From the IMG/VR virus record IMGVR_UViG_3300045988_104990, positions 1 through 41,141 of that record: 41,141 nucleotides of DNA, one strand, 5' to 3'. Shown here piece after piece: positions 11,595 to 36,411 of the stretch (positions are counted from its first letter, which is position 1; each line of letters begins with the position of its first letter). This stretch comes from a virus. Position numbers and translations under genes: made by a program. The notes below the pieces were generated by a model. It was not told where the DNA came from, did not search any database, and saw only the letters and a program-made list of their open reading frames with translations.

Positions 11595-11762
11595 ATGATA
11601 GTAGACATAAATAAAAACAGGCCACACGAAGTATCAGAGCTTATCTGTTTAAAGTGCCTGCACAGATGGATAGGAGTATATCCGAAAGACACGCCATTAA
11701 AAGACATTGTATGTGTATGCGGTGAAAGCGGCTATGTAATAAAAACAGGGCAGACATTATGA
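11595..11762 (+). CDS. Possible 55-aa CxxC..CxC protein upstream of terL (not in ORF track)
   Basis: Hand translation gives MIVDINKNRPHEVSELICLKCLHRWIGVYPKDTPLKDIVCVCGESGYVIKTGQTL. ATGA overlap with the terL start. No convincing RBS. Confidence 0.35.
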   Translation: MIVDINKNRPHEVSELICLKCLHRWIGVYPKDTPLKDIVCVCGESGYVIKTGQTL

Positions 11763-13216
11763 ATGAAGAACAACTGTACCGAATGATACTGCAAAACGAC
11801 TACGCAGAGTATGTGCAGTATACATCTAGGGGACAATGGAAAAAGACAAAATTTCATAGATACCTGTGCGAAGCAGTACAGAGCTTCATTGAAACCGATA
11901 CGGGACATGCTGCAGACATACTTGTTTTATCGGTCCCGCCGCAACACGGCAAGAGCGTTACCATAACAGAGAGCTTAGTGTCATGGTATATGGGAAAGCA
12001 CCCAAACCATTCCTGCATAATAGCCTCATACAATACAGACTTTGCGGAGAGGTTCGGCAGACGTAACAAAGAGAAGATAGAGCAGTACGGAGAGGCGATA
12101 TTCGGCATAAGCGTCGGCGGTAAAAGCTCCAATCAGGAGTTTGAATTAGACGGAACAGCAGGTAGATGTGTCTCAAGAGGTATGCTGTCGGGTATTACAG
12201 GTAACTCCGGTCACTTAATCATCATAGACGACCCTTTAAAGACAAAAGAGGAAGCGTATTCGCAGACCACAAGGGACAAGCTGTGGGAAGAATGGAGTTT
12301 CTCCATCAAGTCACGTTATCAGGACGTAACAAAAGTAGTTGTGATAATGACGCGCTGGCACGATGACGACTTAGCAGGTCGGATAATCAAGAATGAAAAC
12401 AACGTCACTGTAATAAACCTGCCCTTAGAAGCAGAAGCTGACGATCCGTTAGGGCGTAAAGTCGGAGATTCCCTGTGCCCTGAGCTCGGCAAAGACAACG
12501 CATGGGTAAAGGAATTCAAAGAGGGCTTCCTAAAGACCGAGGGTGGAACAATGGCGTGGAATGCTTTAATGCAGGGACACCCGACATCAGAAGATGGCAA
12601 CATGCTTAAAAGGGAGTGGTGGCAGTACTACGACGAACTGCCCGAATGCGGCGACTGGCTTATGAGCGTTGACGCAGCCTTTAAAGACGGAGACGACAAC
12701 GACTATGTAGCAATACAGGTATGGGGCAAACGAGACGCCAACATGTATCTTATCGACCGAGTTAAAAAGCACCTTGATTTTCCGTCCACATTAAGAGAGA
12801 TAAGACGTCTGAGAGGGCTTTATCCGAAAGTAAAACAGGTACTGATAGAAGACAAGGCAAACGGTTCTGCTGCAATACAGGTTTTAAGACGTGAAATGCA
12901 TGGCGTAATAGGAATCAATCCGCAGGGCGGTAAAGTTTCAAGAGTAAACGCAGTATCGGGCGCAATAGAAAGCGGTAACGTATGGCTTCCGAAAAACAAA
13001 GTATGGACACACGAATTTGTTGACGAATGCGCGGCGTTTCCTAACGGCGTACACGATGACGAAGTAGACTGCTGCTCACAGGCATTAACAAGATTTATGT
13101 ATTATCGCGGCAAAGTGCCGGAGATGATAAAAAAGAAGAAGACACTATCCGACGTATTCAATATGGGTACGAAAAGAAAGAGATTAGACATAGGAGACAG
13201 AATCAATGTTGTATAG
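11759..13216 (+). CDS. terL: Terminase large subunit
   Basis: Walker A-like SVPPQHGKS, Walker B LIIIDDPLK, coupling motif TRWHDDDL. C-terminal nuclease acidic residues (SVDAAFKDGDDNDY, HDDEVD). Confidence 0.95.
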   Translation: MNEEQLYRMILQNDYAEYVQYTSRGQWKKTKFHRYLCEAVQSFIETDTGHAADILVLSVPPQHGKSVTITESLVSWYMGKHPNHSCIIASYNTDFAERFGRRNKEKIEQYGEAIFGISVGGKSSNQEFELDGTAGRCVSRGMLSGITGNSGHLIIIDDPLKTKEEAYSQTTRDKLWEEWSFSIKSRYQDVTKVVVIMTRWHDDDLAGRIIKNENNVTVINLPLEAEADDPLGRKVGDSLCPELGKDNAWVKEFKEGFLKTEGGTMAWNALMQGHPTSEDGNMLKREWWQYYDELPECGDWLMSVDAAFKDGDDNDYVAIQVWGKRDANMYLIDRVKKHLDFPSTLREIRRLRGLYPKVKQVLIEDKANGSAAIQVLRREMHGVIGINPQGGKVSRVNAVSGAIESGNVWLPKNKVWTHEFVDECAAFPNGVHDDEVDCCSQALTRFMYYRGKVPEMIKKKKTLSDVFNMGTKRKRLDIGDRINVV

Positions 13217-13442
13217 TTTATCAACGCTGTTACTTTGCATGGTAATGGCTTTTTTAGTTCCGTTAGTTGTCATAAAGGCATTTATAGCAGGCTTTAAGTT
13301 CCAAAAGGGAGAAGATATCCTTGTCCCTAAAAAAAAGGCTGTAAAGGTCACTGAAAGCGACACAGAGCGCAAGAAAAAGATACTTGAAGCCAACATAGAA
13401 AAATATGACGGCACATCTACAGGACAGATAGAGGTTAAATAA
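13206..13442 (+). CDS. Small membrane protein
   Basis: 78 aa with an N-terminal hydrophobic segment LLLCMVMAFLVPLVVIKAFIAGF. Lies between terL and portal. Confidence 0.5.
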   Translation: MLYSLSTLLLCMVMAFLVPLVVIKAFIAGFKFQKGEDILVPKKKAVKVTESDTERKKKILEANIEKYDGTSTGQIEVK

Positions 13443-15409
13443 TGGAAACAACATCAATATGGGTTAAATACCAAAAAGGTAAAGAATTCATTAATAAGAA
13501 AGCACTCATACAGAACACGCAGAAGAACTGGAACTTTTATTTAGGCAATCAGTGGGAGGGGCTTGAAAGCGGCGGCGAGAAAATGCCGATGTTCAACTTC
13601 ATCAAAGGCGTTGTAAAGTACAAAGTTGCGGTTATTTCGCAAAACAAAATGGCTGCAAGGTACATTGATCCCGAAAGCCGCCCCGAATACAAGGGAATCT
13701 GTGAAGCGCTGAACAAAAACTTTGAGAAACTGTGGGAAAACGGCAAATTTGACGTCAAGTCGTGGAATACCGTTAAAGGCGCTGCTGTAGTAGGCGACGC
13801 ATATCTGTTTTGGGGCAATTCAGACGCTACAGACACACAGGTTTTGCCTAATGTAAACGTGCTTTTAGGTGACGAACAGCAGCCGGACCTGCAGAAACAG
13901 CCGTACATTCTGATAATTGAGCGTCTAAGAGTAGGCGAAATCAAGAGAATGGCAAAGGAAAACGGCTTGCCGCAGGAGAAAATAGACCTTATTGTGCCGG
14001 ACGAGGAAAAAGAGCTTGTCATAGGCGACAAAACAGAGGTTCAAAACCCCGATGACGAAAAATGCCTGTCAATTCTCTATATGGACAAAGACGAAAACGG
14101 CTATGTCAGAGTAGGCAGAGCAACAAAGACGGTAGAGTATGAGCCGGTAGAGCCTTTAACAAGAAAAAATCAGCGTGGAGAGGCTACAGGAGGCTTAAAG
14201 GCATACCCGATAGTAAGTTACATATGGGAAGACGCACCGAACTCAGCAAGAGGGCTTGGAGAAGTAGAACAGCTTATTCCAAACCAGCTTGAATTAAATA
14301 AAACACTTGCAAGACGTTCAATCACAGTCAAGCAGACAGCATACCCGCGCATAGCGTATGACAGAAGTGTGATTGATAACGAAGAGGATATAAACAGAAT
14401 AGGTGCTGCAATCGCGTTAAACGGCGGCGGCGCACAGTCTGTATCGCAGATGATTTCATACTTAAATGCAACATCAATGTCAGCAGACGCACAGTATCTG
14501 TCAAACGACTTGCTTGAAATAACGAGAGACCTTGCCGGTGCAGGAGACGCAGCAACAGGTAATGTAGACCCTGAGAAAGCCTCAGGAGAAGCTATCAATG
14601 CAGTAAAAGACGCTGCACAAATGCCGCTTAATGAACAGGTGGCAAAATACAGCCAGTTTGTAACAGACATTGCATATATAGCATTAAACTTATGGTTTGC
14701 ATACAACAAGGATATTACTGTCTCATACGAAGACGACTTCGGACAGCGGCAGGAACTGCAGATAACGCAGGAAGATATAAACGCACTGCAGCCAAATATC
14801 AAGATAGATGTATCCTCAGACAGCCCTTGGAGCAAGCAGGCTGAACAGCAGGAGATAAAGGAACTGTTTATGCAGGGCCACATCACCTTAGAGGAATACA
14901 CAGAGCTTATGCCGGACAACTCATACATTCCAAAAGCGAAACTGAAAATCATTCTTGACAAGAGAAAAAATCAGATGATGAATCAAACGCCTATGGGACA
15001 AATACCTATGGAACAGATGGAACAAATACCTGCAGAGCCTGACGACGACGAAGAGGCGGCGGCAATAGATGAAATGGCACTTCAGATGATGGAAAGCGAG
15101 CCTGACGATGACGAAGAAGCCGCAGCTATAGACGAAAGAGCAATGCAGATGATGCAGGGCGAGGGACTTGTAGACGAAAACGGCGAGCTGTCAGACGGAG
15201 CATTAGACGAAGACGCACTTGTAGATAAATTACTGGCAGAAGCAGAAGCCGCAGAATGGCAGAATAGCCGTTCAGTCAATAAAGAACTTAAAGAAATCCT
15301 TGATAAATGCCTTGAAGAGGGGCTTATCGACAAGGAAGATTACGAAAAGGCTTTGCAGAATGGCTTATCGGAAGAAGAAATTGAATACCTAAAAAATTTA
15401 CTCAGTTAA
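13442..15409 (+). CDS. Portal protein with acidic repeat-containing C-terminus
   Basis: 655 aa directly after terL. N-terminal NWNFYLGNQWEG is a portal-like motif. Position and size fit. Confidence 0.8.
   Translation: METTSIWVKYQKGKEFINKKALIQNTQKNWNFYLGNQWEGLESGGEKMPMFNFIKGVVKYKVAVISQNKMAARYIDPESRPEYKGICEALNKNFEKLWENGKFDVKSWNTVKGAAVVGDAYLFWGNSDATDTQVLPNVNVLLGDEQQPDLQKQPYILIIERLRVGEIKRMAKENGLPQEKIDLIVPDEEKELVIGDKTEVQNPDDEKCLSILYMDKDENGYVRVGRATKTVEYEPVEPLTRKNQRGEATGGLKAYPIVSYIWEDAPNSARGLGEVEQLIPNQLELNKTLARRSITVKQTAYPRIAYDRSVIDNEEDINRIGAAIALNGGGAQSVSQMISYLNATSMSADAQYLSNDLLEITRDLAGAGDAATGNVDPEKASGEAINAVKDAAQMPLNEQVAKYSQFVTDIAYIALNLWFAYNKDITVSYEDDFGQRQELQITQEDINALQPNIKIDVSSDSPWSKQAEQQEIKELFMQGHITLEEYTELMPDNSYIPKAKLKIILDKRKNQMMNQTPMGQIPMEQMEQIPAEPDDDEEAAAIDEMALQMMESEPDDDEEAAAIDERAMQMMQGEGLVDENGELSDGALDEDALVDKLLAEAEAAEWQNSRSVNKELKEILDKCLEEGLIDKEDYEKALQNGLSEEEIEYLKNLLS
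15035..15160 (+). repeat. 2 x 63-bp in-frame tandem repeat (EPDDDEEAAAIDE.A.QMM) in the portal C-terminus
   Basis: Read directly from DNA and translation. Confidence 0.85.
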
Positions 15410-16118: not shown

Positions 16119-16955
16119 ATGAGCTTTAACAACTTCAAACCTCAGATATGGTCAAACGAGGTAACGACACAGCTTGAGAGAAAATGCGTTTTTGCAGGTC
16201 TTACAAACAGACAGTATGAGGGACAGGTAAAAGACGCAGGCGACAGCGTAAGAATACTTGGCGTTGCAAGACCTACAATCTCACAGGCAAACGAAACAAA
16301 CTTTACACTTGCAGATCCGGAAGAAGTACCAACTTCCGCTACAACTCTTAACATCAATCAGATTAGAACATTCAACTATATGGTTGGTGATATAGACCAG
16401 CAGCAGATGAAAGGCAATTTAAAGCCGGTATTATCCGGAGAGACCACAAATGCACTTGCAGAGGAAATCGACAGCTATATTGCAGGAATGGCGCTCACAA
16501 AGGAAGCTAAGCTGATGAACGCTTCAGCACTTAAAATTGAAACTACAAACATCTTAACAGAGCTTGATAAAGCTTGGCAGTACCTTGTAGAGAACAACGT
16601 TCCTACATCTGAGACTATCAACGTAGTAATGTCGCCTAGATTCTGGGTACTCTTAAAACAGAGAATCATCGACTTAGACACTGACAACTCTAAGTTAATC
16701 AAAACAGGACAGATGGCAAAATACTCAAACATGAACCTTATCATGTCAAATGCCGTTGCAACTACTAACAGTGGCGCTGTTGACAACATTATGGTTATGT
16801 CAGAAAAGGCGATTGCATATGTAAATCCGCTTACAAAGACAGAAGCCTACAGACCCGAAAAGAAAATGGCAGACGCTATTAAAGGATTCACTCTGTTTGA
16901 CGCAAAAATCGTTAGACCTAAAGAACTTATCGTAATGAACGTTAAGTACGCGTAG
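16119..16955 (+). CDS. Major capsid protein
   Basis: Position after the scaffold. N-terminal FKPQIWSNEV...AGDSVRI is a pattern typical of HK97-fold or P22-coat-like capsid proteins. A strong terminator lies downstream of the operon. Confidence 0.8.
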   Translation: MSFNNFKPQIWSNEVTTQLERKCVFAGLTNRQYEGQVKDAGDSVRILGVARPTISQANETNFTLADPEEVPTSATTLNINQIRTFNYMVGDIDQQQMKGNLKPVLSGETTNALAEEIDSYIAGMALTKEAKLMNASALKIETTNILTELDKAWQYLVENNVPTSETINVVMSPRFWVLLKQRIIDLDTDNSKLIKTGQMAKYSNMNLIMSNAVATTNSGAVDNIMVMSEKAIAYVNPLTKTEAYRPEKKMADAIKGFTLFDAKIVRPKELIVMNVKYA

Positions 16956-26108: not shown

Positions 26109-26117
26109 GTGACTTAT

Positions 26118-29100
26118 ATGGCGACAATATTCGATAAACTGAATAAAAAAGCTGAAAAGGCAGCTGACAAAGGGGCGAAAAAGAAAAAGAAATATAGCCC
26201 TCAAAGAAAACAGCAGGTAAAGAGCGGATCCGTTTCTGTTGCTAAGAATAAAAAGAAAACCAGTAAAAACCTTACTTCTAATGAAGCTTTACTTCTTCAG
26301 AACCTATCCCGCACCGGCTCACCCAAAGTAGTAAAACAGGGTGTAAAAAACGCTGAAAAGACTTTACGGACTTCAAAGACAAAGACAAATGAGTATAAAA
26401 ACCTCAGTAAAAAGACCGAAAGGAAGAAGTCAAAGCCAAGTAAGCAGTTATCATCTAACGAAAGTCTGTTACTTCAGAACTTAACAAGAACAGGCACGCC
26501 AAACGTAGTCAACAAAGGCTTAAAGGGTGCAGAGAAAACATTACGAACTTCAAAGGCAAAGACAAATGAGTATAAAAACCTGAACAAGAGGGTAGCAAAG
26601 CAGGACGAGAAGTTTTTAAACTCCTCGCCTTTTGCTTATGGCTTTATGGCGGGAACTTCGCCTATTCCGTTAAAGGAAACACTCGAACTGCAGACAGGTC
26701 AGAAGATCGACACGTCTAAAGCAGAAAAGTCTGTCGGTTACAAGGCAGGCTATATGACAGGGCTTGCCGCTGAATATGCGACTACTGGCGGAATAGCAAG
26801 GGACGCAGTACAACAGAGCATAAAAACAGCCTTAAAACAGGCGGGAAAGAAAGCGGGCAAAGAGGCTGTAAAGGATGTTGCCAAAGACGCAAGTAAACAG
26901 ATAGCCAAGAACAGCACAAAACTTACCAAGATAGGTAAAAGAGTATTGCCGGGTATTGCAGCAGACACCATTACAGGCATACCTACCAATGCACTTGAAG
27001 CAGGCAAAGAGGCTTCTAAAGCACCTAAGGGCGAAAAGGGCAAAGAATTTGCCAAGTCACTGGCAGCAAACACAGCGTTTGATGTCGGTATGGGTGCTGC
27101 GGGTGAGGTTATTCCTGCGGCAATCAAGTCTGCCAAAGCAGCGAAAGCAAGCAGGAGTTCGTACATTCCTGCAAACACAGTGCCTAAAGAAAGCAAAAAG
27201 GTTTATAAAGAGTATACAAAAGCAAATAATAAGCAGATTGCGGACTATGCTAAAAAAGTTCAAAACAAAAATCAAGGCAAACAAAAATTTGTAGAAGTAA
27301 CCAAAGTAAACAAGCCTAACTCAGACAAAATAAATGAGTTGACCGGTGTTGATACTACAGGCTATACCATTAAGCTGAGAGGACAAACTTTAGAACAGCA
27401 TATAACGCCAAGACACGGAGCAAATGGCAACGCCGACAAATCAATGGCTGATATAAACGACTTATCAAGAATGGGATACATAATAGATAATGCAGACAGA
27501 ATAGATTATGTGTACGATAAGAACGGACGGCCAAAGGTGAGTAGGGAGTATACCAATAAAGACAGTTCGAGAGCAAACTTGATAATGTTTGAGAAGAAAA
27601 TTGACGGACATTATTATGTTGTGACTGCTGTGCCCGACACAAAAGACAAGTCCCTGCAGGTAGTTAGTTCATATATAAAAAAGGCGGGTCAGACAGGAAA
27701 TGAAAAAAACCTTTCCCAGTACGTCCGAAACGCTTCTGAAACCACTACCTTTAGTGACAGTGTAGCACCGTCCGCAACAGCTGTCAAGCCTTTAGATGAG
27801 AGGTTGTCAGTCGTTAGAGAAGCAAGGGAAGAAGTTCCGAAAGCCTCAGAAAACATATCGTATGAGAATATGACACAACCCGAAATCATCAAAAAGGCTG
27901 AACAGCGAAAGGTCCAACAGGTGGCAATGGAGAAGTCCGCACTTGAAAAAGATTTGGGTGCTGACATCAATAGAGTAAAAGACACAACGGAAGAAAACAT
28001 CAAGGAATACGGACAGTTTGTTAAAGACGGCAAACGCACCAACGTGCCACAAGCAACAGCATACGGAGACACCACGCAGGGAGCTGTCAATATCAGAAAC
28101 AGCAAAGAATTTGAGGAAGCCAAAGACGCTATCGACAAAGGTATAAACGAGGGAAGCTTTGCAAAGCATACAGAAACGCAGAAAACCGCACTGTCAAGAG
28201 CAGATGAAACCATAGCCAATGACGGACTAGACGTTGCAGCCGGGAAAGTGGCAGGTTATACCGAAAGCACAGCCAAAGTGAAAAAAGAGGTTTCTCAAGA
28301 TCAGATTATGTTAGGCTACAAGGTAGCACAGAAATATCTTGATGAGGGCAATATTGAAAAGGCTGTTGATGTTTTATCTGATACAGCAATGCTTGAAAGT
28401 GAAGCCGGTAGAGCGCTGCAGGCGGCAAGGATATTTTCTTCACTGACACCGGCAGGCAAAGTTAAATCCGTAACAAAGGCTGCTGATAAGCTAAGCAAGG
28501 AAAAGAATGTTGACATAACACTCAACAAAGAACTTCTTGAAAAGTTGGCAAAGACTACAGACGCAGACGAAGCAGCAAGAATACAGAATGATATTGCTGT
28601 CGATATGTGGAACCAAGTACCGCCTACCATTATGGATAAAATCAATGCGTGGAGATACACAAGTATGTTATCATCACCAAAAACACATATCCGTAACATG
28701 CTGGGCAATGCCATGTTTGTACCATTCAGAATAATATCAAACGGGCTGCAGGTGGGAATGGAAAAAGCCTTTGTGAAGGAAGCAAACAGAACAAGGGCGA
28801 TATTAAACCCTGCAACAGACAAAAATCTTATAAAAATGGGAGCGGAAGACTACAAAAAAGTAGAATTCACTCTTAGAAACAATACAAAGTACATTGACAC
28901 ACGCAGACCTCAGGACGCAAGGGTATATAAACTTAAACCTTTAGAGAGTGCAAGAAAGTTCGTATCATGGTCTCTTGACGCAGAGGACGGATTGTTTATG
29001 AAGTACCACTACTCAAGAGCATATGCAAGGTATCTGAAGGCACAGAAAATCAAAGGAAAAGTTCCTGCAGAGGTGGCGGAAAAAGCAAGAGCCTTTGCTT

Positions 29101-30629
29101 CACAGGAAGCCTTAGAGGGAACATACAGAGACGCCAATGCATTATCTGATTTTCTCAACAACACAAGGAAGTCGTGGGCTAACGCAGACAATAAAGTGTT
29201 GGCAAAACTCAGCACAATGATGTTAGATACCACAGTACCTTTTGTAAAAACTCCTGCCAACATCTTAAAGCAAGGTGTGAGATATTCACCTTTAGGGCTT
29301 GCTGAAGGTCTTGTAAGAACAGGAATATATGGTGTTAAAAAGTCATTCAGAAGCCCTGAGCAGGTAAGTAAGATTATCAAAGAAATATCAGAGGGGCTTA
29401 CAGGTACAGGAGTGACAGCCTTAGGAGCATATCTCGCTTATGAGGGACTGCTTAATACCTCAATGGATACGCAGAGCAAAAAAGGGCAGTACGACAAAAT
29501 GTTAGGCGAGCAAGAATACTCAGTCAACATAGGCGACTATACATACACTGTAGACTGGACCATACCGGCGTCAATGCCAATGATGATAGGTGCAGAGATA
29601 GCTAAGTTTACACAGGAAAAAGGACTGTCATTTGTCGATACGCTTAACGCCATAAGTAACATTGCAGAGCCTTTATTAAATCTGTCAATGCTTAGTGGTA
29701 TCGAAAACACATTCAATACAGCCTTTTCGCAGGAAAGTACATTTAAAGAGATTGCCAAAAACACAGCAGAAGGTTATGTGTCGCAATTCTTCCCAACATT
29801 ACTTTCGCAAATAGCCAAAACAACAACAGAAACAAGGAAATCAACGACAGCCACCAACAAATCACTAGCCGAAAGAGATATGAAAAGGTATCTTAATCAG
29901 CTCACAAACAAGATTCCGTTGGCAAACGAAAACCTTGCTGATTACATCAATTTGTGGGGCGGCAAAGAAACAAAGTATTCAAACTCGGACTATTTTGTAG
30001 CATTGTTACAGAATGTATTTTCTCCCGGCACTCTTAAAAAGAAAGAGACAACATCTGTTGATAGAGAGTTGTTATCTTTATATGACAGGCTAGATGACGA
30101 TACTGCAAATACAATTATTCCGAAAAACACACCAAGCGGATATGGTGTAGCTTTTGCCGGCACAGAATATCAGATGTCAGAAAAGGATCTGCAAAAATAT
30201 AAAGAGACGCGAGGCAGGCAATCATACGAAGAAGTTCACAAACTTATAAATACCAGCAAATATAGAAATATGAGCGACGAAGACAAGGCGAAAGCTATAA
30301 AAGAAATCTATAGCGACGCCGGGACATATGCAAAAGAAGAATTTTTGAGGTCGAAAGGCGTGTCTGACACAGATATCCAATTCAACAAATTGCATAAAGA
30401 AACAAAAGCAAAGTTCAACAATATGCCGTCAAATGTGACAAAAGAAGCGTATGTTGCTGTAATGAGTTCAAAAGGCAAGGCTAAAGCAGACACAGACGGA
30501 AACGGAAGCATACGACAGGTTGAAGCCAAGGCATATTTAGATACACTGCCATACTCAAACAGCGTTAAGGCAGAACTATGGCAAGCCTATAACGCAGGTT
30601 GGGCGGCAAGAAACAACCCTTACAGATAG
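26118..30629 (+). CDS. Large polyvalent virion/ejection protein with central Barnase-EndoU-ColicinE5/RelE-like (PBECR-type) nuclease-like domain
   Basis: 1503 aa from ATG 26118. Segment YTIKLRGQTLEQHITPRHG...DINDLSRMGYIIDNADRIDYVY...ANLIMFEKKIDGHYYVVTAVPDTKDKSLQVVSSYIKK (about nt 27330-27690) resembles PBECR domains described in phage polyvalent proteins. A Gly/Ala-rich hydrophobic region lies upstream. Confidence 0.6.
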   Translation: MATIFDKLNKKAEKAADKGAKKKKKYSPQRKQQVKSGSVSVAKNKKKTSKNLTSNEALLLQNLSRTGSPKVVKQGVKNAEKTLRTSKTKTNEYKNLSKKTERKKSKPSKQLSSNESLLLQNLTRTGTPNVVNKGLKGAEKTLRTSKAKTNEYKNLNKRVAKQDEKFLNSSPFAYGFMAGTSPIPLKETLELQTGQKIDTSKAEKSVGYKAGYMTGLAAEYATTGGIARDAVQQSIKTALKQAGKKAGKEAVKDVAKDASKQIAKNSTKLTKIGKRVLPGIAADTITGIPTNALEAGKEASKAPKGEKGKEFAKSLAANTAFDVGMGAAGEVIPAAIKSAKAAKASRSSYIPANTVPKESKKVYKEYTKANNKQIADYAKKVQNKNQGKQKFVEVTKVNKPNSDKINELTGVDTTGYTIKLRGQTLEQHITPRHGANGNADKSMADINDLSRMGYIIDNADRIDYVYDKNGRPKVSREYTNKDSSRANLIMFEKKIDGHYYVVTAVPDTKDKSLQVVSSYIKKAGQTGNEKNLSQYVRNASETTTFSDSVAPSATAVKPLDERLSVVREAREEVPKASENISYENMTQPEIIKKAEQRKVQQVAMEKSALEKDLGADINRVKDTTEENIKEYGQFVKDGKRTNVPQATAYGDTTQGAVNIRNSKEFEEAKDAIDKGINEGSFAKHTETQKTALSRADETIANDGLDVAAGKVAGYTESTAKVKKEVSQDQIMLGYKVAQKYLDEGNIEKAVDVLSDTAMLESEAGRALQAARIFSSLTPAGKVKSVTKAADKLSKEKNVDITLNKELLEKLAKTTDADEAARIQNDIAVDMWNQVPPTIMDKINAWRYTSMLSSPKTHIRNMLGNAMFVPFRIISNGLQVGMEKAFVKEANRTRAILNPATDKNLIKMGAEDYKKVEFTLRNNTKYIDTRRPQDARVYKLKPLESARKFVSWSLDAEDGLFMKYHYSRAYARYLKAQKIKGKVPAEVAEKARAFASQEALEGTYRDANALSDFLNNTRKSWANADNKVLAKLSTMMLDTTVPFVKTPANILKQGVRYSPLGLAEGLVRTGIYGVKKSFRSPEQVSKIIKEISEGLTGTGVTALGAYLAYEGLLNTSMDTQSKKGQYDKMLGEQEYSVNIGDYTYTVDWTIPASMPMMIGAEIAKFTQEKGLSFVDTLNAISNIAEPLLNLSMLSGIENTFNTAFSQESTFKEIAKNTAEGYVSQFFPTLLSQIAKTTTETRKSTTATNKSLAERDMKRYLNQLTNKIPLANENLADYINLWGGKETKYSNSDYFVALLQNVFSPGTLKKKETTSVDRELLSLYDRLDDDTANTIIPKNTPSGYGVAFAGTEYQMSEKDLQKYKETRGRQSYEEVHKLINTSKYRNMSDEDKAKAIKEIYSDAGTYAKEEFLRSKGVSDTDIQFNKLHKETKAKFNNMPSNVTKEAYVAVMSSKGKAKADTDGNGSIRQVEAKAYLDTLPYSNSVKAELWQAYNAGWAARNNPYR
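26262..26590 (+). repeat. Two tandem copies of a 177-bp (59-aa) repeat in the N-terminus of the polyvalent protein
   Basis: SKNLTSNEALLLQNLSRTGSPKVVKQGVKNAEKTLRTSKTKTNEYKNL versus SKQLSSNESLLLQNLTRTGTPNVVNKGLKGAEKTLRTSKAKTNEYKNL. The period of 177 nt was read from coordinates 26262 and 26439. Confidence 0.85.
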
Positions 30630-30979: not shown

Positions 30980-31171
30980 ATGTCTAAGAAATGGTTAAAA
31001 GCAGCTCTCGTGAGGGCTGTAAAAACGATTGCACAGACAGCAGTTGCAACAATAGGCACTTCAATGGTTATCTCAGAGGTTAACTGGATAATGGTAGCAA
31101 GTGCGTCAGTGTTAGCAGGAGTAATTTCAATCTTAACTTCTGTTGCAGGACTGCCGGAAGTGGAGGAATAA
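30980..31171 (+). CDS. Holin (phiLC3-type)
   Basis: 63 aa. KAALVRAVKTIAQTAVATIG...SILTSVAGLPEVEE matches the phiLC3 holin family pattern. Precedes the endolysin. Confidence 0.8.
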   Translation: MSKKWLKAALVRAVKTIAQTAVATIGTSMVISEVNWIMVASASVLAGVISILTSVAGLPEVEE

Positions 31172-31172
31172 T

Positions 31173-31916
31173 ATGCGAATCAATGTACATTGTGGGCATA
31201 ACGCCGCAGGTAAAGTTGCCTGCGGCGCTGTGTCTATTCTAAACGAAAGCCGAGAGAACAGAAAAGTCGGGAAGGAAGTCATCAGACTTCTGAGAATTGA
31301 TAATACTGTTTATGATTGTACGGTAGATAATGCGAAAGATGTGAACAAAAACCTGCAAGAGATTGTAGCAAAATGCAATGCTCACGAAGTTGACCTTGAT
31401 GTTTCAATTCACTTTAACAGCGGAGCGAAAAATCAGAAAGGCAACGGCAAGGTTACTGGCACAGAAGTATGGGTTACCGAAAACAAGGGCATAAAAAGAG
31501 TTGTCGGCGAAAACATATGCAACAATATGAAACGATTAGGCTTTACGAATCGTGGGATAAAGAAAACAAGCGGACTTTATGTCCTTAATCATACAAAGGC
31601 AAAAGCAATTCTTATAGAGGTATGCTTCGTTGACGACTTAGACGACGCCAAGCTGTACCGCAAGGTAGGTTACAAGGCTGTAGCAAGAGCCATTGCGGAG
31701 GGAATTGTCGGACACAAAATCGACGAAAGACCAAAGTATAAGGCGGTGAGGAATGTCAATATCAGAAAATCCCCTACAATCCACTCAGATAAGCTAGGAG
31801 CAATTAAAAAGGGCGAGACGATAAAAGGTATACCCGTAGAGAATAACTGGCTGAAAACGGACAGGGGATATATAAAAATTAAAGGTCTTAAAACATACTT
31901 AAAGAGGGAGAAATAA
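31173..31916 (+). CDS. Endolysin: N-acetylmuramoyl-L-alanine amidase (Amidase_3, CD27L-like) with C-terminal SH3-like wall-binding domain
   Basis: INVHCGHN, DLDVSIHFNSG, GTEVWV, RGIKKTSGLYVLNHTKAKAILIEVCFVDD. The C-terminal YKAVRNVNIRKSPT...GETIKG...NWLKTDRGYI is SH3-like. Confidence 0.9.
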   Translation: MRINVHCGHNAAGKVACGAVSILNESRENRKVGKEVIRLLRIDNTVYDCTVDNAKDVNKNLQEIVAKCNAHEVDLDVSIHFNSGAKNQKGNGKVTGTEVWVTENKGIKRVVGENICNNMKRLGFTNRGIKKTSGLYVLNHTKAKAILIEVCFVDDLDDAKLYRKVGYKAVARAIAEGIVGHKIDERPKYKAVRNVNIRKSPTIHSDKLGAIKKGETIKGIPVENNWLKTDRGYIKIKGLKTYLKREK

Positions 31917-32008
31917 TGCTAGCAACAGATGTTTTAAAAAGGCTGAAAAGGCAAAACTTAATTCTGACTATTGCAGTATGCGTACTGCTGATTAAGAAAA
32001 GAGGCTAA
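31916..32008 (+). CDS. Possible 30-aa membrane peptide
   Basis: TAATG overlap with the endolysin stop. Hand translation gives MLATDVLKRLKRQNLILTIAVCVLLIKKRG. Very short. Confidence 0.3.
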   Translation: MLATDVLKRLKRQNLILTIAVCVLLIKKRG

Positions 32009-32014
32009 CTAAAA

Positions 32015-32236
32015 TTGAGAAAGGTAGTAAAGGTATGCGAATTTATTGAGCCGGAACTGGACCAGTTCAGGGCAATATGTAATTTCGTAGGGCTTGAAAA
32101 AGATGTATTTGAATTAAGAGCAAGAGGTTATTCATTATATGAGATGTCAGATACACTTGACGTTGATTACGATACTGTCAAGAGAACAAGCCAAAAGGTC
32201 ACACACAAAATCATAAAAGCAATTCCATACACTTAA
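32015..32236 (+). CDS. Small sigma-region-4/LuxR-like HTH protein
   Basis: TTG start, with no in-frame ATG near the 5' end. AAGAGG lies 9 nt upstream. LRARGYSLYEMSDTLDVDYDTVKRTSQKV is HTH-like. Confidence 0.45.
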   Translation: MRKVVKVCEFIEPELDQFRAICNFVGLEKDVFELRARGYSLYEMSDTLDVDYDTVKRTSQKVTHKIIKAIPYT

Positions 32237-32245
32237 TACACTCTT

Positions 32246-32286
32246 AACACACACTAATCTGTACGTGATTGGTGTGTGTTTTTTTA
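32246..32286 (+). terminator. Strong rho-independent terminator
   Basis: AACACACAC-TAATC...GATT-GGTGTGTGTT followed by TTTTTT. Confidence 0.8.
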
Positions 32287-32315
32287 TTATGCTGTAAGCG
32301 AAAGGAGATAAAGAT

Positions 32316-32660
32316 ATGTACGGTTTTAATCCTTATACAATGCCACAAGCCCCTGTGGGCGTGGTAAACAGCAACAGAGGGGAATTAATCAGAGTAACAG
32401 GTTTTGACGGTGCTAAAGCCTATCAGATGCCCCCTAACAGCAGTGTAGCACTCTTTGACAGCAACGAGGACATATTCTACGTCAAGACTACTGACGGAGC
32501 AGGCTTTCCTACAATCAGAGCTTTTAAGTTTACTCCAATGGAAACACAGCAGCCTGCAAGTGAATTTGTAACAAGAGATGAATTTGAGAGATTAAGGCAG
32601 GAGGTATTAAGTTATGGCAAGCAGTTTGTTCCAAACGAAGAAGCTCAGCAATCAGAGTAA
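32316..32660 (+). CDS. Hypothetical protein (accessory cassette gene 1)
   Basis: AGGAG RBS, 114 aa. No motif recognised. Confidence 0.6.
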   Translation: MYGFNPYTMPQAPVGVVNSNRGELIRVTGFDGAKAYQMPPNSSVALFDSNEDIFYVKTTDGAGFPTIRAFKFTPMETQQPASEFVTRDEFERLRQEVLSYGKQFVPNEEAQQSE

Positions 32661-32841
32661 TATAATTTCACTGATAAAGGGAAATCCGGTGCAGGCATTA
32701 ACAGGGATCCTGCAGAAAAACCCACATATAAAAAACACGCTAGACGCTATGGTAAAAGGGAAAGATCCGAAAGAGGTCTTTTATCAGAAGTGCAGCGAAA
32801 TGGGATACGATCCGGAAGACATTTTAAAACTGATACGCTAG
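32614..32841 (+). CDS. Hypothetical protein (accessory cassette gene 2), start embedded 47 nt inside gene 1
   Basis: Strong AGGAGG 9 nt before ATG 32614. 75 aa. Confidence 0.5.
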   Translation: MASSLFQTKKLSNQSNIISLIKGNPVQALTGILQKNPHIKNTLDAMVKGKDPKEVFYQKCSEMGYDPEDILKLIR

Positions 32842-32883
32842 CCTTTAAGGCTTTTGTAAATAAACTCAGAAAGGGGTATTGAG

Positions 32884-33465
32884 ATGGACAACAACTTATC
32901 ACTAGCAGACATTGCAGCAGTAAGCGGCAAAGAGGGAGCAAGCGGCGGCGGACTATGGATATTCGCTCTGCTTATACTTTTACTTATCGGAGCAGGCGGC
33001 GGCGGCTTCTTTGGCGGCAGTGCAGCGTCAAATGCAATGACACAGGCTGACTTATGTATGAACTCACAGTTCCAGAACTTAAATCAGAATGTGAACGATA
33101 TCGGGCAGAGACAGTTCATGCAGGCCAACGAGCACACTAAGGACATTGCCACAGCTTCGGCAGCAATGCTCACAGGCTTTGACACAGTAGGCTCTAAGAT
33201 TGATAACTGCTGCTGTGAGACAAACAGAAATATCGACAGCGTAAAGTTCGATATGGCAAACTATGTAGCCTCAATTAATGCTACGTCTACAGCCAACGCA
33301 CAGAAAATCTTAGATAAAATGTGCGAAAATCAGATGTCTGCAATGCAGAATGAAATTCAGACACTGAAACTGCAGCAGGCAATGTGCGGTGTTCCAAAAA
33401 TCAATCCTTACGGATATGGAATTGTGCCGACATTCAGTGGCTGCGGAAATCTGACAAACATCTAG
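32884..33465 (+). CDS. Membrane protein with Gly-rich TM segment and Cys clusters (accessory cassette gene 3)
   Basis: GGGLWIFALLILLLIGAGGGGFFGG TM segment, then a Q/N-rich helical region containing DNCCCETN, MCGVPK and SGCGN. Confidence 0.6.
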   Translation: MDNNLSLADIAAVSGKEGASGGGLWIFALLILLLIGAGGGGFFGGSAASNAMTQADLCMNSQFQNLNQNVNDIGQRQFMQANEHTKDIATASAAMLTGFDTVGSKIDNCCCETNRNIDSVKFDMANYVASINATSTANAQKILDKMCENQMSAMQNEIQTLKLQQAMCGVPKINPYGYGIVPTFSGCGNLTNI

Positions 33466-33475
33466 TCGAGGGGAT

Positions 33476-33500
33476 AAAAGAGGTCTTACGGACCTCTTTT
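33476..33500 (+). terminator. Hairpin AAAAGAGGTC-ttacg-GACCTCTTTT (terminator or attenuator inside the cassette)
   Basis: Perfect 10-bp stem with a T-rich 3' side. Confidence 0.6.
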
Positions 33501-33516
33501 GAGAAAGGAGAAAAAA

Positions 33517-33921
33517 ATGAGCTGTAAATCGGGAATATACACAGCAAACACTACGCAGGGTACAGCCGTTGCTAACGGCGGAATATTACCTTTAGGTAAT
33601 ATCATCAGACGATACGGACAGCATATCAACTTAGGCGGTAACGGTATCACTCTTACCGGTGGCGGATATTACGATGTAGACGCTACAGTAACAGTAACAG
33701 CTGCAGCGGCAGGTCCTGTATCAGTGGCATTATACTTAAACGGCGTTGCTGTGCCGGGAGCGGTTGCTACAGTAACAGCGGCAGCAGATGGGATTGTAAC
33801 ACTTCCTGTTTCTGCACTGGTAAGGCTTAACGGCTGTAATGCAGAGGGAACCCTTACTCTTGTAGTCGGCGGACAGGCTGTAACCACATACAACACAGCA
33901 ATGGTTGTAGAGAAGATATAA
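33517..33921 (+). CDS. Beta-rich Ala/Val/Thr/Gly protein, possible TNF/C1q-like jelly-roll (accessory cassette gene 4)
   Basis: AGGAG RBS before ATG 33517. The pattern GYYDVDATVTV...VALYLNGVAVPGA...GIVTLPVSALVRL...GTLTLVV...MVVEKI resembles BclA-C-terminal or spore-appendage-type beta domains. This is a memory-based, weak call. Confidence 0.55.
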   Translation: MSCKSGIYTANTTQGTAVANGGILPLGNIIRRYGQHINLGGNGITLTGGGYYDVDATVTVTAAAAGPVSVALYLNGVAVPGAVATVTAAADGIVTLPVSALVRLNGCNAEGTLTLVVGGQAVTTYNTAMVVEKI

Positions 33922-33933
33922 GGCGGTGATGTT

Positions 33934-34374
33934 ATGGGCTTGAGAGATATCACAGACAAAATCTACGCCTTAGACGACAAAGAGAAAAAGGAAAAGGCTA
34001 ACGACCTTTACTACAAGTCAGCACAAATGCTAAAACATCATAATCCGCAGGCATATGAGCAGCTTGTCAGAGAAGCAGAAAATATCTTTTATGACATTGA
34101 CGAAGAAAAGGCTGTACTGATAGTCAGGAAGATGATACCTTTCGGCGAACGGTGGACTTACGACACAATAAAACAATTTATCGCCACAAAAGGAATTACA
34201 GACAGGTGCATTGAATACTACTTAGCGATGAATATGGCATACAATGACTATTACGAAGTGGCTGCCAAATACGGCAATGATAATGAGGATTACTTCTTTG
34301 ACATAGCTAAAGCATTTGTAGATGATAAAGACGCAGTGCCGAATAAGGTTGCAAAATACTTTATGCTGACATAA
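33934..34374 (+). CDS. Helical hypothetical protein (accessory cassette gene 5)
   Basis: 146-aa ORF. A terminator lies immediately downstream. Confidence 0.6.
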   Translation: MGLRDITDKIYALDDKEKKEKANDLYYKSAQMLKHHNPQAYEQLVREAENIFYDIDEEKAVLIVRKMIPFGERWTYDTIKQFIATKGITDRCIEYYLAMNMAYNDYYEVAAKYGNDNEDYFFDIAKAFVDDKDAVPNKVAKYFMLT

Positions 34375-34375
34375 A

Positions 34376-34412
34376 GACAAAAACCACAGTTTTACCTGTG
34401 GTTTTGTCTTAT
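34376..34412. terminator. Bidirectional terminator between the accessory cassette and attP/int
   Basis: GACAAAAACCACAG-ttttac-CTGTGGTTTTGTC, a 13-14 bp stem with one bulge. Confidence 0.75.
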
Positions 34413-34423
34413 AAGAAAGGTCA

Positions 34424-34632
34424 CATAAAAGTACTAAAAAGGTACTAAAAAGTTATTTAAAACGCTTTTTTTCGCATATAATAGCCAAAATCAGCGTATT
34501 AAAAACGTTGAAATATCAATATTCATCAAAATCTATCAAATTCCAAGAGTTACTAGCTAACTAGCTTTATAGTGATATTATACTGTAAATTTCAACATTT
34601 TGCAAGATACAAAGTACTAAAAAGGTACTATT
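34424..34632. repeat. attP-like region: 20-bp direct repeats AAAGTACTAAAAAGGTACTA (34428, 34611), built from 11-bp GTACTAAAAAG units, flanking an AT-rich segment
   Basis: Repeats were read directly. The second copy abuts the integrase stop codon. Between them lie ACTAGCT-A-ACTAGCT (34552-34566) and three (T/C)ATCAA(A/T) motifs. Confidence 0.6.
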
Positions 34633-35647
34633 CTATCATAGAAACAAACTCTTCCTGTTTGTTCGGATAAAGATGGGAATATGTAGCAAGGGCTGTTCCC
34701 GGTGTGTCGCCAAGTCTTTCAGCGACAAGCAGTATATTACAGCCAAGCTCAATCATCATAGAAGCATGAGAATGTCTCAAGTCGTGCATTCTGATAACAG
34801 GCAAGTCCTGTTCTGCCAATGCACGTCTAAACTCATTCCTTAGTGGTGTTCTACTGGCTTTGAACAGCGTGTCAGACGGCGTCAAGCCATACCTTGCATT
34901 TATATAGTCCCTAAGTTCATCAACAAGGAAGCCGGGAATAATAACCTTGCGTATGGAATTAGGTGTTTTTGGCTTTGTAACTACTTTCCTTTGGGATATG
35001 TTTTTGTTTATGTTAATGCTTTTGTTCTCCAAATCTATATCTGCTAGCGTCAGGGCGAGACATTCCCCTAGACGCATGCCCGTATAAAATAGAGTATCAA
35101 ACACAGCTTTGTATGTAAGGTTGGAGAATTTAAGCTGTTCGTATTGTTCTCGTGTAAGTATTGTATAGTTGCGTTTTTCTTTTGGTACAATATGCTTTGC
35201 AGTTCTGACGGGGTTTTCCTGCAGACCGCAAAAGGTGATCCCCCAGTTAATAATGCAGCTTAAAACTGCGGTTATATTTCTAATGGTGGTTGAAGCAAGC
35301 CCCTTTTTCTGCAGAGAGTACTGCCAGTTCTTAATTGCAAGAGGTGTTACCTCAGACGCAGAACACTTGAAAAAACCGAGAATATGGTTGTCTGCCATAG
35401 ATTTATGTTTAATGTATGTGCTTTCTTTTACCCTTGCCTTTAAGTCCACAAGATACTTATTAACAAGGGTGTCAAAGCTAATATCGTTGTTGACAGCAGC
35501 GTGATTTTCAATAAAATCTCTTTCCCACGCAAGAGCTTCTTTTCTCAAGTCAAAGCCTGACTTCTTCTTCTGCTTTCTTTCTCCCGAATAGTCTTTATAG
35601 TAGAATTTGCAGTACCATTTCCCGTTTTTGTCTTTATATGCAGGCAT
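34628..35647 (-). CDS. int: Tyrosine integrase
   Basis: N-terminal arm-binding-type MPAYKDKNGKWYCKFYYKDYSGERKQKKKSGF. C-terminal catalytic RLGE...HDLRHSHAS...LGDTPGTALATYSHLY. Confidence 0.95.
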   Translation of the reverse strand: MPAYKDKNGKWYCKFYYKDYSGERKQKKKSGFDLRKEALAWERDFIENHAAVNNDISFDTLVNKYLVDLKARVKESTYIKHKSMADNHILGFFKCSASEVTPLAIKNWQYSLQKKGLASTTIRNITAVLSCIINWGITFCGLQENPVRTAKHIVPKEKRNYTILTREQYEQLKFSNLTYKAVFDTLFYTGMRLGECLALTLADIDLENKSININKNISQRKVVTKPKTPNSIRKVIIPGFLVDELRDYINARYGLTPSDTLFKASRTPLRNEFRRALAEQDLPVIRMHDLRHSHASMMIELGCNILLVAERLGDTPGTALATYSHLYPNKQEEFVSMIE

Positions 35648-35661
35648 AGTACACCTCCTTT

Positions 35662-35967
35662 TTACTGTATTACACTTTCAATTTCGGCATATATCTCAGT
35701 GTCGGAATACTTGTCCATTATTTTTTGCCAGTCATCACGATCAATAAAAACAAACTCCTCACTCAATTCGGCTCCAACACAATCTTGGCAGAGCAAATCA
35801 TCTGCTTCGTAGTTTAGCGGATATTCGCCACCATCAGTGTAAACCTCAATGTCAATGCCACACTGAGGACATATAACATAAGCTTCTTTCGGAATTTGTG
35901 TACAAGAACATGTGAATATTAAAATCAAAACAAACGTTAAGGTTAAAATTATTTTCTTCATTCTCAA
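35662..35967 (-). CDS. Exported or lipoprotein-like small protein with CxxC..CxxC ectodomain
   Basis: Signal-like MKKIILTLTFVLILIFTCSC, then YVICPQCGIDIEVY...LLCQDCVG. Confidence 0.6.
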   Translation of the reverse strand: MRMKKIILTLTFVLILIFTCSCTQIPKEAYVICPQCGIDIEVYTDGGEYPLNYEADDLLCQDCVGAELSEEFVFIDRDDWQKIMDKYSDTEIYAEIESVIQ

Positions 35968-35973
35968 ACTCCT

Positions 35974-36411
35974 TTACCAACACACGCTGCAAGCGTCATA
36001 TCCTGCGCTCTCAGCTTCGTAAGAACTTTCATAATACGATAAATCGTCTTTCCCCGACACATACTGACACCATATATGATGATATTTTGAGCCTGTACGT
36101 GTAACGTAAGCATAATTTTCTTCCGAAACAGCGTCATTGTCATAACTGTAATCAGAGTTGCTTCGCAATTCCTGTTCGATTTCATCGCGCAGCTGTTTGC
36201 TTATACATTGTCTGCAAGTTGTTGTGTATGTACCCTCAGTACTATTGTAATACAGATATATATTACGACCACAAGTGCTACAAATAGCGTATGTATCATC
36301 TTTATCTGTAACTTTGTACAGGAGGTAACCATTTAGAACTAACGATACGATAAGGGCAACAGTCAAGAATATCAAAGCAAATTTATTGTTCGTTTTCTTT
36401 TCTTCGTTCAT
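35974..36411 (-). CDS. Membrane-anchored protein with CxxC..CxxC ribbon and C-terminal YH-x3-C...GY-x-AC-x2-C metal-binding motif
   Basis: TM segment FALIFLTVALIVSLVLNGYLLY. YAICSTCGRNIYLY...TTCRQCIS is paralogous to the previous protein. C-terminal GSKYHHIWCQYV...AGYDACSVCW. Confidence 0.6.
   Translation of the reverse strand: MNEEKKTNNKFALIFLTVALIVSLVLNGYLLYKVTDKDDTYAICSTCGRNIYLYYNSTEGTYTTTCRQCISKQLRDEIEQELRSNSDYSYDNDAVSEENYAYVTRTGSKYHHIWCQYVSGKDDLSYYESSYEAESAGYDACSVCW

Follow-up and report, generated by a model that had tools for sequence, protein, structure and literature searches.

Results

Conservation of the gene block

What is the group of six small genes that lies between the endolysin and integrase genes of a temperate phage, and what might it do? 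The question is raised by positions 32,015 to 34,374 of the IMG/VR virus record IMGVR_UViG_3300045988_104990, a complete temperate phage of 41,141 nucleotides (the window, meaning the whole stretch of DNA that was analyzed). A preliminary description of this sequence had delimited six plus-strand open reading frames (ORFs) at exactly the coordinates found here, termed g1 to g6, and had proposed that they form a terminator-bounded accessory cassette with no described counterpart, possibly acting at the cell envelope or the spore surface. We find that the cassette is a real and widespread system outside every described kind, that one of its proteins is predicted to adopt the fold of the BclA C-terminal domain, and that a role at the envelope of infected cells or lysogens can tentatively be suggested.

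To define the block, 175 loci were gathered from viral contigs, species-representative genomes, and individual look-ups, and their ORFs were labeled with iteratively built hidden Markov models. All six genes have many homologs, which identifies them as genes rather than chance ORFs. Labels were assigned to g4 in 172 loci, g2 in 153, g5 in 145, g3 in 130, g1 in 63 (∼37% of 172), and g6 in 46 (∼27% of 172), and the labeled genes followed the same-strand order g1-g2-g3-g4-g5-g6 at every locus but one (L030), where the ORF labeled g5 is an implausible 564 aa in length and overlaps g4. Over 150 distinct phage and prophage loci thus contain the block with its gene order unchanged. A g3 or g5 slot that received no label was nearly always filled by a gene of the same size, mostly of 60–90 aa in the case of g3. 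Across 116 distinct loci the median pairwise identities were 26% for g2, 42% for g4, and 28% for g5, and the divergences of the block genes were correlated with each other (Mantel r 0.40–0.55, p 0.001). On the basis of the conserved order, the correlated divergence, and the conserved RNA signals described below, we conclude that the block genes work together.

The conserved core is g2-g3-g4-g5, whereas g1 upstream and g6 downstream are optional. The cassette anticipated by the preliminary description therefore stands, as does co-conservation independent of the phage backbone, but its composition as five genes plus a helix-turn-helix (HTH) protein does not. A blastn search with the window cassette against 50,697 phage records gave no match. 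The idea that the cassette evolves faster than its neighbors was also considered; no such difference was seen among close relatives.

The jelly-roll protein g5 and its replacement

The AlphaFold2 (AF2) model of g5 was of high confidence (predicted local distance difference test score, pLDDT, 94.4), and a Foldseek search with this model retrieved the BclA C-terminal domain (3twi and 1wck, TM-score 0.80) together with ExsFA (7r1m) and BxpB (8d02), both at TM-scores of 0.76–0.78; further matches were F-BclA (9h38), C1q, EDA, and TNF-family ligands. When compared to PDB sequences, the g5 family profile likewise found BclA (E 8.6e-5). The match of g5 to the Pfam BclA_C family (E 1.5e-6, 28.5 bits) falls below the family cut-off of 38, and g5 is for this reason a distant relative of that family. 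The g5 protein is thus predicted to be a stand-alone jelly roll of the BclA C-terminal domain/ExsFA/C1q/TNF type, the model, the structure search, and the profile together bearing out the earlier remark that its pattern recalls the TNF/C1q-like C terminus of BclA.

Only the globular domain is present in g5. Collagen-like GXX repeats were not found (NCBIfam GXX_rpt, E 0.27), no NCBIfam exosporium-leader model matched at E ≤ 1, and neither DUF3992 (Ena) nor DUF4183 was matched in Pfam at E ≤ 1. The N terminus, MSCKSGIY, runs straight into the first strand, and the start at position 33,517 is supported by the conservation of MSCKS at the N terminus of homologs. In all, 664 homologs of g5 were found. 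The N-terminal cysteine was considered as an Ena-like connector and rejected, as many homologs are without it. A second idea cast g5 as a soluble decoy for the receptor-binding head of the same phage; it was dropped because the window contains no other g5-like domain.

At some loci g4 is followed by an unrelated small protein, g5′, in place of g5. The g5′ proteins are 110–135 aa long and combine a Cys-rich N-terminal peptide (e.g., MACKPVCKLCD) with a beta-rich core; their carriers include Clostridium phage CPD1 (MH999280; gene 040, L177 5397–5774) and Dulem virus 36 (L015 6630–7010). The family had no Pfam match, DUF3992 and DUF4183 included (E ≤ 0.05–0.1), its profile search of PDB sequences gave nothing below E 0.4, and hhalign detected no relationship to g5 (probability 0.8%). 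The tail type of g4 was tried as a predictor of g5 or g5′ and rejected, the correlation being only partial.

The Cys-rich, predicted membrane protein g4

From its N terminus, g4 comprises an acidic tail, one Gly-flanked hydrophobic helix (residues ∼24–37), helices at residues 54–116 and 125–166, and a C-terminal tail rich in aromatic, Pro, Gly, and Cys residues. The Gly-rich transmembrane helix and the Cys clusters of the preliminary description are present in this protein, which contains GGGLWIFALLILLLIGAGGGGFFGG as well as the CCC, MCG, and GCG cysteines. The CCC motif is kept in 146 of 150 g4-family proteins, for which the median number of Cys residues is 8. The g4 homologs numbered 1156, and a profile search among 1.84 billion representatives retrieved 2116 clusters at 50% identity, nearly all of them stand-alone proteins of 180–230 aa. 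In PHROGs g4 matched PHROG 16490, of unknown function (E 1.4e-9); no match was obtained in Pfam, NCBIfam, or PDB sequences, with the single sequence or as a profile (nothing below E 0.4 for the PDB). The AF2 model of g4 was used for secondary structure alone and was kept out of the fold search.

Relatives and derivatives of g4 occur in several settings. N4-like Vibrio phages encode a clear relative with CCC and ILDKLCENQ motifs, located between a tail protein and the endolysin; Escherichia coli N4 has no g4 homolog. A natural fusion (P0506) joins g2 to the C-terminal half of g4. A second fusion (P0507), of tape-measure protein to g4, was considered as a functional clue and set aside as a deletion product in a defective prophage: at L181 6001–7164, a deletion has brought the C-terminal half of g4 directly behind the N-terminal 285 aa of the tape-measure protein (PhageMin_Tail), and the fusion gene is followed by g5, a holin gene, and a CHAP endolysin gene. 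Another locus (L182 529–4522, identical to L108) encodes a g4 variant in which a classical N-terminal membrane anchor replaces the Gly-rich one and next to which lies a g5′-type gene; this variant is found on a 4.6-kb contig, two genes downstream of a radical-SAM gene.

The remaining proteins

The alignment of g2 shows an N-terminal peptide rich in Pro, Tyr, and Gln, a small conserved beta-rich core with the pattern V.G..GA.AY...S..L.D....FY.K.TDG.G..T...F.F, and a C-terminal helix (YVTR.EFE). None of its 740 homologs has a name. PHROG 21718, of unknown function, was matched at E 1e-14, and there was no match in Pfam (single protein and per-member family scan), NCBIfam, or PDB sequences (profile search, nothing below E 0.4). 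The g3 protein is helical and rich in Met, Gln, Asn, and Pro, with a conserved N terminus (MASSLF/MNPL) and the C-terminal motif FY..C.Q.GI.P..I; its start at position 32,614 is supported by homologs that keep MASSLF, and no family match was found in Pfam, NCBIfam, or PHROGs.

Both optional genes are easier to classify. The g1 protein matched PHROG 1190, a sigma factor, at E 8.8e-5 with region 4 alone covered. Its matches to Pfam were weak when the window protein was used by itself, and among the 44 members of its family 15 matched GerE and 10–11 matched Sigma70_r4 or r4_2. Judged by these sequence matches, g1 is a stand-alone HTH protein of the LuxR/GerE or sigma-70-region-4 type, and the family matches show that its earlier designation as sigma-region-4-like was right. 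The helical protein g6 matched Pfam DUF7841 (PF25223) at E 4.2e-13, exceeding the family cut-off; loci without g6 carry unrelated small genes in its slot, such as the pair encoding 52-aa and 103-aa proteins at L001–L004. No signal peptide was found in g2, g3, g5, or g6.

Terminators and a candidate promoter

The three hairpins pointed out in the preliminary description are real, all being far more stable than shuffled sequence, and they support its view of a cassette delimited by terminators. The hairpin at 32,246–32,280 with its T tract (−19.6 kcal/mol, z −6.0 versus shuffles) was called by the terminator scan on the plus strand, and the resulting terminator parts the late/lysis transcript, which includes g1, from g2. 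The hairpin between g4 and g5 had a stability of −14.2 kcal/mol (z −3.1) and the one that closes the cassette −18.7 kcal/mol (z −5.7); the latter was called only on the minus strand because its T tract lies within the stem.

These signals recur across the family. A strong hairpin with a T run (−10 to −31 kcal/mol) separates g1 from g2 in 52 of 53 distinct loci with g1, and of all 163 distinct loci considered, 99 have a terminator-like site ahead of g2. The stem sequences of the g1-g2 hairpins vary by locus and several have GNRA-type loops, indicating that this element acts at the RNA level. A −10-like hexamer was found within 22 nt after 41% of the terminators preceding g2, compared to 7% of other terminator-like sites (odds ratio 9.4, p 1.7e-20) and to 3 of 35 terminators located after the block. 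Examples are TTTTGTTATAAT and TTTTACAAT, and the window itself has TTTTTTATTAT; here a distance of 25 nt, which includes the ribosome-binding site AGGAG, separates TATTAT from the ATG of g2. In 95 of 134 distinct loci g4 and g5 are likewise separated by a hairpin with a T run, which probably serves as an attenuator or an mRNA-stability element. We read the layout as terminator, promoter, g2-g3-g4, attenuator, g5 (with or without g6), and terminator; the terminators are demonstrated by the analyses above, and the promoter is a candidate suggested by the hexamers.

Genomic neighborhoods and hosts

Three genes on each side of the block were scanned with Pfam in ∼40 distinct viral loci. Endolysins from seven or more families (Amidase_2, Amidase_3, Amidase_5, GH25, glucosaminidase, M15_3, and CHAP), holins from five or more, and occasional tail genes lay upstream, whereas downstream neighbors were tyrosine integrases (14), serine recombinases (4–5), and HTH repressors, with lysis genes being rare. 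The usual place of the block across loci is thus the classical moron position, downstream of the endolysin and upstream of attP and the integrase, as had been described for the window. Other arrangements exist: in one lineage the block directly follows a 3225-aa MuF_C/ART polyvalent protein and precedes a Rep3 replication gene; some phages (L181) have the order tail genes, block, holin and endolysin; in CPD1 the block lies 3.3 kb past the holin, among small genes; and in Dulem virus 36 and some other loci it comes directly after tail or receptor-binding protein genes. Structural relatives of g5 were found in phages labeled Siphoviridae, Podoviridae, and Myoviridae.

Several loci record rearrangements of the block. 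A chromosomal remnant (L005 8001–8869 and L006 2919–3787) consists of g5 and the 52-aa and 103-aa genes, with intact ORFs, between TetR and NUDIX genes; the related full prophage L001 abuts the same NUDIX gene. A relative 96–99% identical to the window phage (L017 5092–5995) has a ∼0.7-kb insertion that replaces g3 and carries a 237-aa minus-strand ORF, and its neighboring g4 is just 88% identical. In CPD1 a 207-aa gene (gene 038, L177 4065–4688) is inserted between g3 and g4; its product looks by sequence like a homing-endonuclease-type protein and had no Pfam match at E ≤ 0.1.

Matches in species-representative genomes were mostly from Clostridia (Oscillospiraceae, Lachnospiraceae, Christensenellales, and Ruminococcus), with others from Faecalibacterium (a 125-kb contig), Collinsella (a 289-kb contig), Slackia, Atopobium, Bulleidia, and Mogibacterium. 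Some contigs assigned to Bacteroidota or Proteobacteria have the size of a phage and could be binning errors; no inference was drawn from them. Gut material of humans, lemurs, rabbits, horses, and chickens, together with rumen material, was the source of the phages and prophages that carry the cassette. The Butyrivibrio phage Ceridwen (MN882553), which its authors judged to be probably virulent and whose host does not sporulate (PMC7372960), carries g2, g4, and g5 after its endolysin gene and a terminator. Some hosts do sporulate, as indicated by a related prophage that adjoins a small acid-soluble spore protein (SASP) gene. The 125-kb Faecalibacterium contig bears two cassette-containing prophage regions (L120 and L121) that are ∼39 kb apart and have near-identical maps around the block.

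Organization of the window phage

The features of the window phage are collected in Table 1.

Table 1. Positions of the cassette genes, the associated signals, and other genes of the window phage
Feature	Position	Strand	Remarks
Large terminase	11759–13216
Portal	13442–15409
Major head protein	16119–16955
Polyvalent-type protein	26109–30629		1506 aa
Holin	30980–31171		Upstream of cassette
Amidase endolysin	31143–31916		Upstream of cassette
g1	32015–32236	+	73 aa, TTG start; last gene ahead of terminator
Intrinsic terminator	32246–32286	+	14-bp stem, 7-nt loop, T tract
−10-like hexamer TATTAT	32285–32290	+	Read from the sequence; fused to terminator T tract
g2	32316–32660	+	114 aa
g3	32614–32841	+	75 aa; 47-nt overlap with end of g2
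g4	32884–33465	+	193 aa
Hairpin with short T run	33475–33501	+	Between g4 and g5
g5	33517–33921	+	134 aa counted from ATG; ORF opens at TTG 33499
g6	33934–34374	+	146 aa
Terminator-like hairpin with A tract and T tract (bidirectional type)	34374–34410		Closes cassette before attP/integrase region
Tyrosine recombinase	34628–35647	−	Downstream of cassette

Three further features of the window were noted. The 1506-aa protein had no PHROG match, and its counterpart in a related phage bears the Pfam LPD38 polyvalent-protein domain; in the lineage with the 3225-aa MuF_C/ART polyvalent protein, that protein occupies the corresponding position. A 30-aa ORF at 31,916–32,008 (MLATDVLKRLKRQNLILTIAVCVLLIKKRG) contains a hydrophobic stretch, and its start codon overlaps the stop codon of the endolysin gene (TAATG); its product could be a small lysis-associated membrane peptide, or the ORF could be there by chance. 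On the minus strand at 35,662–36,411, between the integrase and the repressor-side genes, two small Cys-rich (CxxC...CxxC) proteins are encoded, one of 101 aa with a signal- or lipoprotein-like N terminus (MRMKKIILTLTFVLILIFTC) and the other of 145 aa with an N-terminal membrane helix. Temperate Firmicutes phages often carry lysogen-expressed exclusion proteins at this site.

Discussion

A possible function and its alternatives

As a tentative answer to the question of function, we suggest that the block may be an autonomous, moron-type accessory operon that moves among unrelated phages infecting gut Firmicutes and whose products form a g4/g5 complex tethered to the membrane at the envelope; we regard this proposal as possible rather than probable. 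A sigma-A-type −10 element fused to the upstream T tract would drive g2 to g6 apart from the lysis transcript, and g1, where present, would be made at the very end of the late transcript and would probably tune the g2 promoter. The g4 product would be a single-pass membrane protein whose Cys-rich two-helix stalk ends in the aromatic/Pro/Gly/Cys tail, and g5 would form a trimer of the BclA/ExsFA/C1q type. ExsF (ExsFA) binds proline-rich leader peptides in the inter-subunit clefts of its trimer (PMC12357932), and by analogy the g5 trimer may dock on peptides at the g4 C terminus, the g2 N terminus, or both, with g3 acting as a Met/Gln-rich helical assembly partner. The product would be a membrane-tethered complex that alters the envelope of the infected or lysogenic cell to the advantage of the phage, most plausibly by excluding competing phages or by sparing progeny from loss on cell debris. 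A complex of g4 and g5 with g2 and g3 is suggested by the conserved g4-g5 pairing, the Pro-rich and aromatic end peptides of g2 and g4, and the binding behavior of ExsF; an accessory role at the envelope is suggested by the autonomous operon design and by the position. A more specific version, in which the g5 trimer captures the g2 and g4 end peptides to give a self-assembling, membrane-tethered layer or fiber on infected or lysogenic gut bacteria, would amount to a phage form of exosporium docking outside sporulation; we consider it quite unlikely.

Several observations weigh against a membrane-tethered envelope complex made from its own promoter. Replacement of g5 by the unrelated Cys-rich, beta-rich g5′ in ∼23 loci means that the cassette can do without the BclA-like fold. 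For g4, the AF2 model built from a 50-sequence alignment reached a pLDDT of only 50, and the charges flanking the hydrophobic helix are nearly neutral, giving a weak positive-inside signal and an ambiguous topology. A variant with a classical N-terminal anchor (P0424) suggests that the N terminus is inside and the C terminus outside; with the stalk directed outward, g2, g3, g5, and g6, which have no signal peptides, cannot meet g4 before lysis. Upstream of the g2 hexamer there is no convincing −35 element, the promoter scan of the window made no call, and 59% of the upstream terminators are not followed by a −10-like hexamer. Finally, the cassette is always on the late-gene strand beside lysis genes and is also present in a probably virulent phage, both of which agree with a late role in the lytic cycle at least as well as with lysogenic conversion. 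Given the lack of signal peptides, the ambiguous topology of g4, the late strand, and the virulent carrier, roles in lysis, in the virion, and in abortive infection must be weighed alongside the envelope complex.

A lysis or release accessory would place g4 in the membrane at the time of lysis, as a single-pass, coiled-coil protein in the manner of an i-spanin, XhlA, or BhlA, with g5, g2, and g3 leaving through the holin lesions to help dismantle or bind outer wall layers. The cassette almost always adjoins holin and endolysin genes on the same strand, at L181 lies between tail genes and the holin, and occurs in the probably virulent phage, and the low-confidence AF2 model gives g4 an i-spanin layout (N-terminal hydrophobic helix, two long helices, and conserved Cys residues). 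In the N4-like Vibrio phage K479 the g4 relative is near the endolysin gene, with two genes between them, one on the other strand, and the gp60-type i-spanin gene that E. coli N4 has between its endolysin and portal genes is missing from that interval in K479. We nevertheless think this role unlikely, since most loci have a strong terminator between the lysis genes and the cassette, the monoderm hosts offer no outer membrane to fuse, no o-spanin-like lipoprotein is encoded in or next to the Vibrio g4-relative gene, no holin, spanin, or XhlA family was matched in Pfam, PHROGs, or NCBIfam, the window already encodes a holin and an endolysin, and the CPD1 cassette is well removed from the holin. 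The lack of signal peptides in g2, g3, and g5 would also be explained by assembly in the cytoplasm, as expected if g5 trimers were a virion decoration or fiber tip and g4 a hydrophobic protein for ejection or anchoring. Jelly rolls of the C1q/TNF type commonly serve as receptor-binding or spike heads, the Foldseek matches of g5 include PRD1 P5 and many collagen-like phage fiber proteins, and the late-gene strand and the loci with the cassette directly after tail or receptor-binding protein genes are in keeping with a structural role. The same cassette, however, accompanies sipho-, podo-, and myovirus-type backbones, is insulated by a terminator from the structural and lysis operon, follows the lysis genes in ∼10 of 11 informative loci, and has left a chromosomal remnant in which g5 is intact without any phage; moreover, no other protein of the window phage has a g5-like domain or is an obvious docking partner. 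A virion role therefore seems rather improbable.

The autonomous operon lies at a site where prophages carry conflict genes, the Gly-rich single helix of g4 could oligomerize, and the family is very diverse and has its post-g4 protein swapped between g5 and g5′, as expected of arms-race genes. These features would suit an abortive-infection or defense module in which a cytoplasmic sensor (g5 with g2 or g3) gates a glycine-zipper membrane effector (g4) in the manner of RexA and RexB. We judge this to be very unlikely, for PADLOC models gave no match beyond coiled-coil noise for g4 (E 0.06–0.12), enzymatic and nucleotide-binding domains are absent, the module is carried by a probably virulent phage, and it is not faster evolving than its neighbors among close relatives. 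The possibility that we credit least, with hardly any probability, is remodeling of the spore surface or exosporium by a prophage, with g5 as an ExsFA/BclA-like protein, g4 as its Cys-rich ExsY-like partner, and g1 as a late mother-cell regulator of the GerE kind. In its favor, the best structural matches of g5 all come from the exosporium, the g1 family matches GerE, the absence of signal peptides is like that of proteins assembled in the mother cell, and one related prophage has the SASP gene beside it. Long contigs of Faecalibacterium and Collinsella, which do not sporulate, nonetheless carry the block, as does a Butyrivibrio fibrisolvens phage; g4 has relatives in Vibrio phages, g5 has neither exosporium leader nor collagen repeats nor a DUF3992 match (E ≤ 1), and a single generic HTH clan includes both GerE and sigma region 4. 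Because the carriers include phages of non-spore-formers, the spore-surface interpretation offered in the preliminary description is unsupported as a general function.

Significance

None of the four core proteins is named, and for three of them no curated family was matched. A defined unit of core genes, optional genes, and terminators allows the consistent annotation of thousands of "hypothetical" prophage genes, and its small size makes the cassette convenient for experimental work. Should the complex act at the envelope, it would represent a common way for gut prophages to alter the host surface or its susceptibility to other phages, and it would be the first role in bacteria of the BclA/ExsFA/C1q fold outside spores. 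The layer or fiber version, if true, would add a previously unrecognized kind of phage-built envelope structure.

Comparison with known systems

Scans of all six proteins against Pfam, NCBIfam, PHROGs, and PADLOC gave only the weak BclA_C match, DUF7841, generic HTH families, and PHROGs of unknown function, and no described counterpart was found in these databases, in PDB sequences, or in literature searches, in agreement with the preliminary description. The closest structural likeness is to BclA, ExsFA, and BxpB (1wck, 3twi, 7r1m, 8d02, and 9h3d), with which g5 shares the C1q/TNF-type jelly roll at TM-scores of 0.76–0.81. Like ExsFA, g5 is a stand-alone domain (∼130–170 aa) without a signal peptide; the identity of g5 to BclA and ExsFA is 14–20%, with the Pfam score below the gathering threshold, and in contrast to BclA it lacks the collagen-like stalk, the exosporium leader, and the spore context. 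It further differs from the exosporium systems in being phage encoded, including in phages of non-spore-formers, and in always being paired with a membrane protein that those systems lack. Endospore appendages are built from Ena (DUF3992) and F-ENA (DUF4183) subunits, small jelly-roll or beta-rich proteins whose N-terminal peptides bear Cys, and some g5 and all g5′ proteins also start with Cys-rich sequence; g5 and g5′ nevertheless do not match DUF3992 or DUF4183, the N-terminal Cys is absent from many g5 proteins, and the hosts are often non-sporulating.

Among lysis proteins, g4 resembles the i-spanins (lambda Rz and N4 gp60) in the layout suggested by its low-confidence model and in its holin/endolysin neighborhood, but it has no sequence or profile similarity to them and no o-spanin partner, its hosts are monoderm (mostly Clostridia), and a terminator lies between the lysis genes and the cassette. 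The idea that g4 is itself a spanin was rejected: no lipobox ORF occurs in or near the Vibrio homolog, and N4 gp60 is of the classical i-spanin type in a phage that has no g4 homolog. The predicted layout of g4 can also be likened to that of proteins of Bacillus prophage lysis cassettes, which include the small membrane or coiled-coil proteins XhlA and BhlA and, as soluble beta-rich partners, XepA and YomS.

The broadest likeness is to phage morons and lysogenic-conversion cassettes, which sit between the lysis genes and attP in temperate Firmicutes phages. The cassette matches these elements in position, flanking terminators, and a distribution independent of the phage backbone, and it may likewise have its own promoter; no toxin, enzyme, or known exclusion protein was identified among its products. 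Whereas the typical moron is one sporadic gene, this cassette keeps four collinear genes, down to 26–42% identity, in hundreds of phages, even in a probably virulent one.

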